Below, piece after piece: positions 15,162 through 18,455 of a stretch of 64,000 nucleotides of DNA (positions are counted from its first letter, which is position 1; each line of letters begins with the position of its first letter). The notes beneath the pieces are model-generated. The model ran no database searches, was not told the origin of the DNA, and worked only from the letters and a program-made list of their open reading frames with translations. This stretch comes from Rickettsiaceae bacterium (GTDB taxonomy: Bacteria; Pseudomonadota; Alphaproteobacteria; Rickettsiales; Rickettsiaceae), in contig JBGCFO010000003.1 of assembly GCA_045106955.1 (NCBI GenBank), positions 14,430-78,429 of the forward strand, given 5' to 3'. A program made the position numbers and the translations under genes.

Positions 15162-18100
15162 CTAAACAATTGGTATTTGTGTTTCAATATCACTATCAAG
15201 CTTAAAATGGAGTATCGTATCTTTTGTTAAATGAGCTATTGGTAATAAGTATGAATATGATGCTAATATTATAAATTGCTCGCCATAAAAATGGTTTCTT
15301 CGATTAGTTTCATATAAACCTCTATATATCCTAGTAACTTGGTATATATCATCACCTAATGATTCAAATGAATCAAATCGAATAATCTCATCACCCCACA
15401 TCGCCAGATTTAAGCTAGATGAATTTTTATTGACACTATCTTTAAAATTTCTACATTGCACTTGAATCGTAGTGTTGTCTTCTCCTACTTCCATTTCTAT
15501 ATTATCTTCTTGATTAAAATACAAAACTATTCCTATAGCACTATTAGAGCTAATTTGAGCAATATAATAATAATCTTCATTTTCTTTAGTTTTAAGATAT
15601 AGTTTTTTTGATTGCGCTCCAGATAAGTATAAAGCCATATATGGCATCATAATTGCTGCATTATCATTATCAATTAAAAACGGCAATTTTAGAATTTTCA
15701 ACTCATCTTGATCGATTACATTGCATTTCAATGATTGTAGTGGCCTATAATTTAGCATATTATAGCTCAAAACATTATCAACAATACCTGTGATTCTTAC
15801 ATGTCTAGATGATAACTCTATATCTATCAAACGAATGTTATATTCAAAACCTAAATGAGTAAAACGAACGAAATCTGTAGGTCTATAAGCAAAAACATAA
15901 TCAGGTAGTATAAATCTTACAATTTTACTTTCAATTGCAGCATTTTGTAAAATCATATTTCCTAGCCTATTAATCTCTTGATACGATCCTACAATTGGCA
16001 AAGAAATATTACTAGTCTTTACACAAGAATATTTCCGCTCAGAATGAGTATAGCATGTATCTATTTTATAATCGTCATGATAATTAATATAAGAAATATT
16101 AATTGCATTGATAATATTTGATTCTGATATGTCTTCTCGTTGGAAATAACTAACATTAGATTGTAATTTTATAAAATCCTGCGAAGTAATATCATAAGAA
16201 ATACCGTACCCTCTCTTGATAAAAGAAATTCGATCAAAATCATTTGCTATCAAATCAAAAAAATAACATACTCTCAATAAATTAATTATATCCATAGCAC
16301 TCATGTTAGGTTTATTAAAGCATAAACCATCTATAGATTCATCAAGCTGTGTTACATCGATTCTATCAATCTCTATCATGGATTTTAAAGATAATTCACA
16401 TAATATCTTTGCGAGTGTAACAGAAGAAAATTTATGATTTACCCAATGCCCCTTCTCCCATAAATATTCATCATGCCAAATATTCATATGAGGCCAAGCA
16501 GGATAAGGTCTAGCATCCCATGTCCAGAGAAACATTTGCTCAATATATTCTTCTTTTTGCCAATACTCAATAAATGCTTTGATAGACCTCCTTTGAATAG
16601 CAAAATCTACACATCCATTTGAGTATCTAGGAATTCCTCCATCTCTACATTTAGGATCAAAAAAAACATTTGGCTGATTTGGAGCTTTATCAATTGAAGG
16701 AAATCCAAATTCTGTAAACCATATTTTTTTCATTCTTGGCTTCCATGAAGTCTTATTTCCATCTGGATTATAATGATCATTTTCCCACCAATAGCGTATA
16801 TTCTTCCAGGCATATCTTAGATCTATATCAAAATGTTTATTATCATTATAATAATCTACGTAATAATCATAACCTTCTCCAGAATAACAACCTTCAAATA
16901 TTTCTTGCGAACTAATATTCGAATTATTGTTTCTTGTAATCGGAAAATAAGCATCAATTGCAACGCAGTCGATATATTCCGATGACCATAATAAATCCAG
17001 ATTATACCATCCTGAATCTGTATGGTGATATTCAGACCAATCAGCTGCTTAAGTAACGATCGTATGATTTCCTACTATATCTTTTACTAACTGAGCTAAT
17101 TGAAGAAATTCATTTACAGCTGGAAATTCATCATCACCATTTATAATTTTAGTAAGCCCAATATATTCAGATCCGATAAGTATAGCATCGATTTTGTCTT
17201 TACATAAATTTGCATAATGCAATATGAATTGATTATAACCTTCATCTTTGTGAAAAAAATCTGCAACCTCTGATGATCTACATGTAATGTGGCCGCGCCA
17301 AGGTTTACTGTGAACGTCTAAAAATACCATTGGATATAATGCCACTTTAATTCCACGTAATCTTAACTCATCTAAATAACGTAACAAACTTTCATCGCTC
17401 ACGGTACCACCATAATTTGGATTTCCTAATTGATCTTTAGAAATAAGCGGAGAATTATATCGATTATATCGACCTACTCTCCATTCTTCAGAATATGTTA
17501 CATTTGAATCATTAAACTCTATATAAGGACGAATTATACATTTTGACGCGTCTAAATCATTGCCAAACCAGCATACTACAACTGATATCCATTCTATGTT
17601 TGGACAAACTTGCTGCAATTGATTTAAACTATGAATACTATCTGCAATATTTAAATAATTATGCATATTGATAGTTTTTGATGACAACTGAACTCCATAG
17701 TCATTATTTACATATTTATATTGAATCTTGGTATCATACACAAACTCTCCTGAGCCTGGAATCATTACCATAGAATTGATCATATCTTCAACGCAAATTA
17801 ATGCTGATTCATCAATTTGAGCTTTTCTTAATACTTCAAAAGAAAGCTTTGGTATCATATTACCAAAATCAATCAATGGTAATTCTTCAAACACAATGTA
17901 AGCAAAATCACGAAATGCAGGGGTTTTATCAACTCCATCGTGTAATTTAATTAATAATTCATCCGGCAACTGATCTTCAGAACCCTTATATAGTCTAAAA
18001 TTATATCGCTTTAAATCAATTATCTCACCATTAGTCCAAACTCTAATAATATCTTCAATCTCTCCTTCGCAAATCATAAATGCGCATGAAATATAATATT

Positions 18101-18455
18101 CATAGTTTGTGTAATATGAAATCGAGGTTTTTTGTTTGTGTAGAATATCAAATGGATGATGATAATACTTAGCTTTTTCAGTTGATATAGATTTTACATG
18201 AATTTTATCTGAGCAAAATATCTTGGCTTCAACCTTAGCAAAACCAAAAATCAATGATATTGGATCTCCATAGCAAAGAACAGAGGAAGAAAAACTTTCT
18301 GATAATGTCTGAAAAAATTGACGCTCTTCTGGTGTACGCAATGAATTCTCAAGATAATTTCCAATCATTTGGCCAGCAAATCGACCAATTGTAGATAATA
18401 TGCCATTACCAGCTAACTTCCAGGCTACAGCGCTTAATAATTGACCAAGCATCAA
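15162..18455 (-). pseudogene. GTA ORFg15-like tail/host-specificity protein (TIM-barrel-like + phage-tail domains), interrupted by one in-frame TAA
   Basis: ORFs 17049..18455 and 15162..16733 share one frame. The stretch 16734..17048 is also open in that frame (AADWSEYHHTDSGWYNLDLLWSSEYIDCVAIDAYFP...). The only break is TAA at 17049-17051 (...GNHTIVT*AADWSEY...). The Gly-rich N-terminus, DAILIGSEYIGLT, and IWFTEFGFPSIDKAPNQPNVFFDPK match my memory of RcGTA g15-type proteins. Confidence 0.7.

Follow-up and report, generated by a model that had tools for sequence, protein, structure and literature searches.

In a 64-kb stretch of contig JBGCFO010000003.1 from a Rickettsiaceae bacterium (hereafter the window), a frame on the minus strand (18455..15162) encodes what, judged by profile and sequence matches, is a clear homologue of the baseplate protein megatron (g15) of RcGTA, the Rhodobacter capsulatus gene transfer agent (GTA), and this frame is broken by a single in-frame stop codon. 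We consider it likely that the gene is a resident, vertically inherited Rickettsiales megatron homologue that has just been inactivated by one substitution, from the TAT or TAC codon of Tyr468 to TAA, making it a nascent pseudogene. In this copy the loss would be seen at its outset, a single codon having changed without any decay since, in a lineage that has no close sequenced relative; should reads confirm the stop, the case could help in dating or modelling the erosion of GTAs. It is one more data point for what is known already, namely that GTA-derived genes, megatron included, are dispersed over Rickettsiales genomes and for the most part conserved but have been lost time and again in Rickettsiaceae, and it leaves the knowledge of GTAs unchanged.

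Translating the window again agrees with what had been read from the sequence only, namely a frame that is continuous across two program-listed open reading frames (ORFs) and the 315 nt between them, with TAA at 17049-17051 as its sole interruption. The upstream ORF spans 17049..18455 (468 aa, TTG start), the downstream ORF 15162..16733 (523 aa, ATG at 16733), and the gap 16734-17048. Homologue N-termini, when aligned, locate the actual start at the ATG at 18452; counted from there, the frame has 1096 positions, the stop being position 468, in the codon context GGA AAT CAT ACG ATC GTT ACT TAA GCA GCT GAT TGG (protein ...GNHTIVT*AADWSEYHH...). The frame is much longer than chance permits and its two halves are collinear with one protein family, so it is not a product of chance. 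The gene and the spacers on either side of it comprise the following features:

17052..18452, minus strand: N-terminal 467 codons of g15, with the iris/penetration part, the adhesin-like part and the first part of the TIM barrel including GSE (E429), by alignment to RcGTA
17049..17051, minus strand: in-frame TAA in place of an invariant Tyr codon (conceptual residue 468), from the sequence and the homologue alignment
15162..17048, minus strand: continuation of g15, 628 codons and the terminal stop, with the rest of the TIM barrel, the gp27-like central domain and a C-terminal domain seen as a weak match
16731..16733, minus strand: first in-frame start past the stop, an ATG (M574) within the PRMKKIWFTEFG motif, from the ORF list and the homologue alignment
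18453..18912, no strand: AT-rich spacer separating the g15 start from a divergent orphan ORF (18913-19476)
14843..15161, no strand: spacer between the convergent ends of polA and g15

Family identity of the interrupted gene

The assignment to g15 through the Pfam families GTA_TIM and Phage-tail_3, made at first from the letters alone, held in a Pfam profile search, in which both families score above their gathering cut-offs (27 bits for GTA_TIM, 23 for Phage-tail_3). GTA_TIM (PF13547) matches on both sides of the stop, with 51.5 bits before it (profile 2-66 of 299), where a GH113-like match is found as well, and 129.7 bits after it (profile 68-299 of 299), and the break in the profile between 66 and 68 falls exactly at the stop. 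The central gp27-like domain is represented by Phage-tail_3 (PF13550; 62.3 bits, profile 4-162 of 164, ~15819-16304), and Rcc01698_C (PF23666) gives a partial match (profile 45-97 of 98, ~15273-15413) of 23.1 bits against its cut-off of 27. The motifs that the sequence-only reading had quoted as TIM-barrel segments contain two residues that are invariant in the family, E429 in GSE before the stop and E581 in FTEFGFPS after it, which we infer to be the acid/base and the nucleophile of a clan-A-like glycosidase.

The NCBIfam model GTA_megatron (NF048004) covers the N half with 384.7 bits (profile 10-501) and the downstream half with 315.4 bits (profile 503-1157), and the conceptual full protein reaches 720.3 bits in a collinear match (residues 6-1071 against profile 10-1155 of 1299). 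The window protein does not reach the equivalog cut-off of 800 bits; intact Rickettsiaceae relatives score 725-836, so the shortfall stems largely from lineage divergence and a short C-terminus. Two intact relatives (P0005, 1090 aa; P0007, 1080 aa) have the same end point as the window gene, and a tblastn search of the 319-nt spacer at 14843..15161 with the C-terminal tails of homologues found no remnant of the C-terminal extension (~100 aa) present in many of them. When compared by phmmer with the structure of the RcGTA megatron (PDB 6TBA/6TEH), the N half aligns at 113-378 with 108-369 of the chain (E=2e-50), and the C part at 1-382 with 512-930 (E=2e-36).

Protein identity to the nearest relatives is 49-54% for g15 and 53-54% for polA, and the GC3 of the two genes is 0.20 and 0.17, respectively. 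A divergence in step with that of polA, together with a matching GC3, points to a long-resident and vertically inherited gene.

The replaced tyrosine and the age of the lesion

The column of the stop holds Tyr in 13/13 aligned homologues and in 88/88 full-length ones, and with an invariant Tyr a single third-position change (TAY to TAA) suffices. An alternative genetic code was ruled out, as TAA terminates 30 of 45 genes in the window and ORF lengths are normal.

Calculating dN/dS for each half was unfeasible because the nearest homologue has a protein identity of ~50% and synonymous sites are saturated. Instead, we used a retention test, counting the residues kept in columns with a conservation of at least 90% among the other homologues and giving the percentile among homologues at which this places the window gene:

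Residues 1-229: 34 of 41 conserved positions kept, 2nd percentile
Residues 230-467: 75 of 78 kept, 28th percentile
Residues 469-700: 97 of 98 kept, 53rd percentile
Residues 701-1096: 20 of 21 kept, 35th percentile

Past the stop, the conserved columns show no relaxation and lie within the range of intact homologues. This undiminished conservation indicates either a very recent lesion or a base-call error that was left uncorrected. The recent inactivation that the sequence-only reading had proposed is thus supported by the alignments, both through the invariant Tyr and through downstream columns kept as in intact genes. Residues 1-229 (window 18452-17766), the iris/adhesin-like N-terminal domain, are unusually divergent, though still alignable with homologues, and show a deletion at G13, the changes G16N, G76A, I79F and W80C, and an altered Gly-rich tip; this divergence is independent of the stop.

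Translation would end at residue 467, midway through the peripheral TIM-barrel domain, and the N-terminal product would retain the iris/penetration and adhesin-like parts and would be without the central and C-terminal domains. In RcGTA, it is the central domain of megatron that docks onto the hub and distal-tail proteins (domain map in PMC7296036). The sole possible downstream product, starting at M574, would be without the N-terminus and half of the barrel. The stop separates the invariant glutamates E429 and E581 from each other. Barring readthrough of the stop, GTA-type baseplate function would be lost in either case. A functional outcome from expressed halves seems unlikely from the layout of the frame, since the stop bisects the TIM-barrel domain and the next in-frame start lies 105 codons on.

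Neither half, nor the product of the alternative start, has an exact match among recorded proteins, in which polA of the same contig is recorded; the products of uvrB and of a 565-aa neighbour likewise have no exact match there. The missing records for both halves are consistent with annotation of the gene as a pseudogene. A search with the N half for fragments from the same species found none, the best match being 53% identical.

Alternative explanations for the stop

Some observations weigh against an inactivated gene. The perfect preservation downstream of the stop is equally expected of an intact gene, an error in the consensus base at the TAA remains a rival, and an unrelated lineage (L082) stops at the identical codon, which is unexpected under purely random decay. 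If the TAA were a sequencing or assembly error, the gene would be an intact 1096-aa megatron homologue under purifying selection, which we regard as improbable, if far from negligible. Conservation past the stop is the same as in intact genes, the lesion is the single one within 3.3 kb, and the sequence comes from a draft contig 80,036 bp long. Elsewhere, similar lesions are found beside intact, near-identical cluster mates (L082 beside L205, with 2 nt differences in 2061 bp; P0131 beside P0207, at a G8 homopolymer), and some of these lesions in other assemblies may be errors. The lesion in the window, however, is a substitution, unlike the homopolymer indels typical of assembly error, and general noise in the assembly can be set aside, since the remaining housekeeping ORFs of the 64 kb all have their full length. 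In an assembly made independently from SRR29999185, a Logan contig that carries polA is identical to the window over 5,181 bp (window 10442-15622); it ends inside g15, short of the stop. Both ORFs are long and conserved, and it is also conceivable that they form a stable split gene whose two translation products join again into a functional baseplate protein; split genes that stay transcribed are said to have been described in Rickettsia by Ogata and colleagues in 2001. We find this very unlikely for the gene in the window, where no in-frame start occurs within 105 codons past the stop and none of the relatives examined has a conserved two-ORF arrangement at the site. The ATG at 16733, which the sequence-only reading had pointed out as an internal start for the downstream half and which is indeed the first one in frame after the stop, encodes the consensus residue of the conserved PRMKKIWFTEFG motif among homologues; M574 is, on this alignment, an ancestral internal Met and no newly evolved start, and a product beginning there would miss ~100 barrel residues.

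The unrelated case is a marine Rickettsiales metagenome scaffold (ENA SOLA22-1; L082, protein P0125) with TAG at the same Tyr codon (1750-1752); it is 49% identical to the N half of the window gene, has ~40% GC, and its frame continues with ...AADWSEYHH.... A contig assembled from a different sample of that project (L205, protein P0205) is intact at 1173 aa and carries TAC at this position (2513-2515), which is one of the 2 nt differences between the two in 2061; the L082 TAG is either an error or a young polymorphism. Close to the site, the gene in L084 (2375-2425) ends with TAG TAA two codons before the Tyr, the remaining 48 nt being unrelated, and that in L083 (4600-4640) has a frameshift in a G8 run eight codons ahead of the Tyr, while its cluster mate P0207 is intact at 1179 aa. 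Pattern scans found TAR at this codon in 0 JGI metagenome contigs versus at least 120 with TAY, and in 0 IMG/VR viral contigs versus 7 with TAY. The window gene has 430 codons that are one step from a stop, via 603 routes, the chance of one independent nonsense event landing on this codon is ~0.3%, and, given ~8-30 events examined, the probability of a same-codon coincidence is roughly 3-10%. As the pattern scans gave no further cases, we treat the stop at the same codon in two lineages as a probable coincidence.

A functional stop would make more of this coincidence, by acting as a population on/off switch, by limiting dosage through low-level readthrough, or by delimiting a selected 467-aa penetration and adhesin-like product, with the Tyr codon as a preferred break point. 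The intact frame after the L082 TAG, its polymorphism with TAC, and the breaks in L084 and L083 within 2-8 codons of the site would fit such a role, and repurposing of GTA parts by symbionts has been a matter of speculation (George et al. 2022, PMC9254644). We nonetheless give a functional stop very little credence, in view of the scans without TAR and of the Tyr found in all full-length homologues. The other nonsense lesions are scattered (residues 4, 176, 489, 604, 753, 900 and 997), the break falls mid-fold in the TIM barrel, and both stops are young (one polymorphic, neither with downstream decay), so that neither represents a maintained state. UAA followed by G is a strong terminator, and the four tRNAs within the window are all ordinary, with no suppressor tRNA among them. 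Programmed readthrough or recoding was ruled out, the TAR scans being empty and the sole other case, L082, being polymorphic with TAC. That Tyr468 is a preferred selectable off-switch, or the point at which a functional "penetration + adhesin" product from the N-terminus ends, strikes us as hardly credible; if it were true, endosymbionts would shut down or repurpose the GTA baseplate through the Tyr468 site.

Solitary location and erosion across the Rickettsiaceae

Within the window, the interrupted gene stands apart from any GTA cluster. Pfam profiles run on the ~47 ORFs of the whole window detected no other GTA head or tail gene, with no capsid, portal, terminase, distal tail (g12), hub (g13) or peptidase (g14) among them, so that the absence of flanking GTA genes seen by the sequence-only reading holds over the full 64 kb. 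Its view that a lone g15 is notable in itself has to be given up, because related genomes also have g15 alone among housekeeping genes and dispersed GTA genes have already been published (PMC9254644, PMC10732058). The flanks of g15 in these relatives are housekeeping or mobile-element genes (gltX, rplT, an ATP-binding cassette ATPase, DUF2608, a transposase). Conserved polA-g15-uvrB synteny was considered and rejected, as uvrB lies less than 10 kb from g15 in 3 of 80 related loci. An earlier account of dispersed Rickettsiales GTA genes is reportedly that of Lang and Beatty from 2007. In the Rickettsiales, dispersed GTA clusters with conserved capsid/portal, distal tail/hub and megatron genes are described (George et al. 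2022, PMC9254644), and in Orientia tsutsugamushi a set of six GTA genes, one of them for a TIM-barrel protein, sits at conserved sites apart from one another (Giengkam et al. 2023, PMC10732058).

The 80 related genome loci hold mostly intact ORFs of ~1200 aa. The closest homologue from a metagenome-assembled genome (L001) has an in-frame stop of its own (12242-12244), aligned with Y753 of the window gene, which looks like a further Tyr-to-stop lesion, and g15 is frameshifted in two others of the 80 (L014 and L056). Among 211 homologous loci there are ~8 nonsense lesions (residues 4, 176, 468, 489, 604, 753, 900 and 997) and ~12 frameshift candidates, and ~10% of the loci carry one or the other. 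Fragmentary copies occur in R. bellii (790/850 aa), R. helvetica (267 aa), Trichorickettsia (762 aa), Orientia chuto (731 aa) and the Tisiphia-type clade, where g15 ends at ~890 aa. These copies show that g15 has repeatedly been lost or trimmed in the Rickettsiaceae, and the window gene would be one case of the erosion that GTA tail genes are undergoing in the reductive genomes of this family.

Two observations concern g15 in other genomes. In a Rickettsia endosymbiont of Cardiosporidium (L008, 13661-15271), a weak DUF2793-like ORF and a phage-lysozyme gene (PF00959, 120 bits) come after g15 on its own strand; they may form a small tail/lysis module absent from the window. An intact homologue (P0041) carries an in-frame RPE1 (Rickettsia palindromic element, 41.5 bits) at residues ~220-264, between the adhesin-like and TIM-barrel domains.

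Neighbouring genes and host

As the sequence-only reading had it, polA lies on one side of g15 and an AT-rich spacer on the other. The former is located at 12251-14842 on the plus strand, convergent with g15, and on the 5' side of g15 a 457-nt AT-rich spacer is followed by an orphan 187-aa ORF and then uvrB. The spacer at 18453..18912, which presumably holds the g15 promoter, has a TATAAT-like box ~30 nt upstream of g15 and no clear Shine-Dalgarno sequence; with DNA so rich in AT, scans for promoters and for terminators told little (for promoters, 42 found versus 36.9 expected from shuffles).

The rest of the window is housekeeping DNA of ~30% GC, including rpoB, hscBA, fdx, polA, uvrB, acnA, dnaB, bamA and alaS. 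The best relatives of polA are from Tisiphia (53-54% identical), with Rickettsia near 50%, and those of g15 belong to the same taxa; the low identity of both genes to their best relatives marks the host as a deep-branching Rickettsiaceae-like endosymbiont. A TLC ATP/ADP translocase, a hallmark of energy parasites with an obligate intracellular life, is encoded at 36058-37584 (557 bits), and AmpG-like major facilitator superfamily genes are found at two places, 6305-7585 and 42625-43893.

Near g15 and uvrB, an orphan 565-aa ORF without a family match is located next to an HTH_3 protein and a truncated fragment of an IS5-like DDE transposase (23755-24219, 154 aa); this region (21827-24777) resembles the remains of a mobile element. 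Past a tRNA-Ser (60356-60447), the GC content of 60356-64000 is 0.37-0.39 versus ~0.30 before; this part contains genes for a MarR-type regulator, an APH/choline-kinase-like phosphotransferase and a GNAT acetyltransferase, and could be an acquired island. Four ORFs (249, 188, 187 and 166 aa; 53199-54511, 18913-19476 and 37794-38294) have no Pfam or NCBIfam match.

Comparison with known systems

The order of domains in the window gene is the same as in the RcGTA megatron (Rcc01698, ORFg15), with an N-terminal Gly-rich/hydrophobic part, an adhesin-like domain, a peripheral TIM barrel, a gp27-like central domain and a C-terminal domain, the last only weakly matched in the window gene. In contrast to that protein, the window gene is interrupted by a stop within the peripheral domain, is shorter by ~200 aa, its fiber-binding domain being without the distal part (no match to profile 1156-1299), and lies outside any g1-g15 head-tail cluster. 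The megatron of a tailed phage (PDB 8GTC) also resembles both halves (E=5.5e-40 and 3.9e-27), but its match is weaker than that of RcGTA, and phage genes do not surround the window gene.

The dispersed GTA sets of the Rickettsiales resemble the window in having the megatron/TIM-barrel gene apart from capsid and portal, in an AT-rich, obligate intracellular alphaproteobacterium. The genes of those sets are intact and under apparent purifying selection (PMC9254644, PMC10732058), whereas the window gene carries a fresh nonsense mutation, and its host is only ~50-54% identical to Rickettsia and Tisiphia in polA and g15. The eroded g15 copies of the Rickettsiaceae are the same gene in the same bacterial family; these copies are without whole domains, whereas the copy in the window is complete but for one codon, which would place it at the earliest detectable stage.

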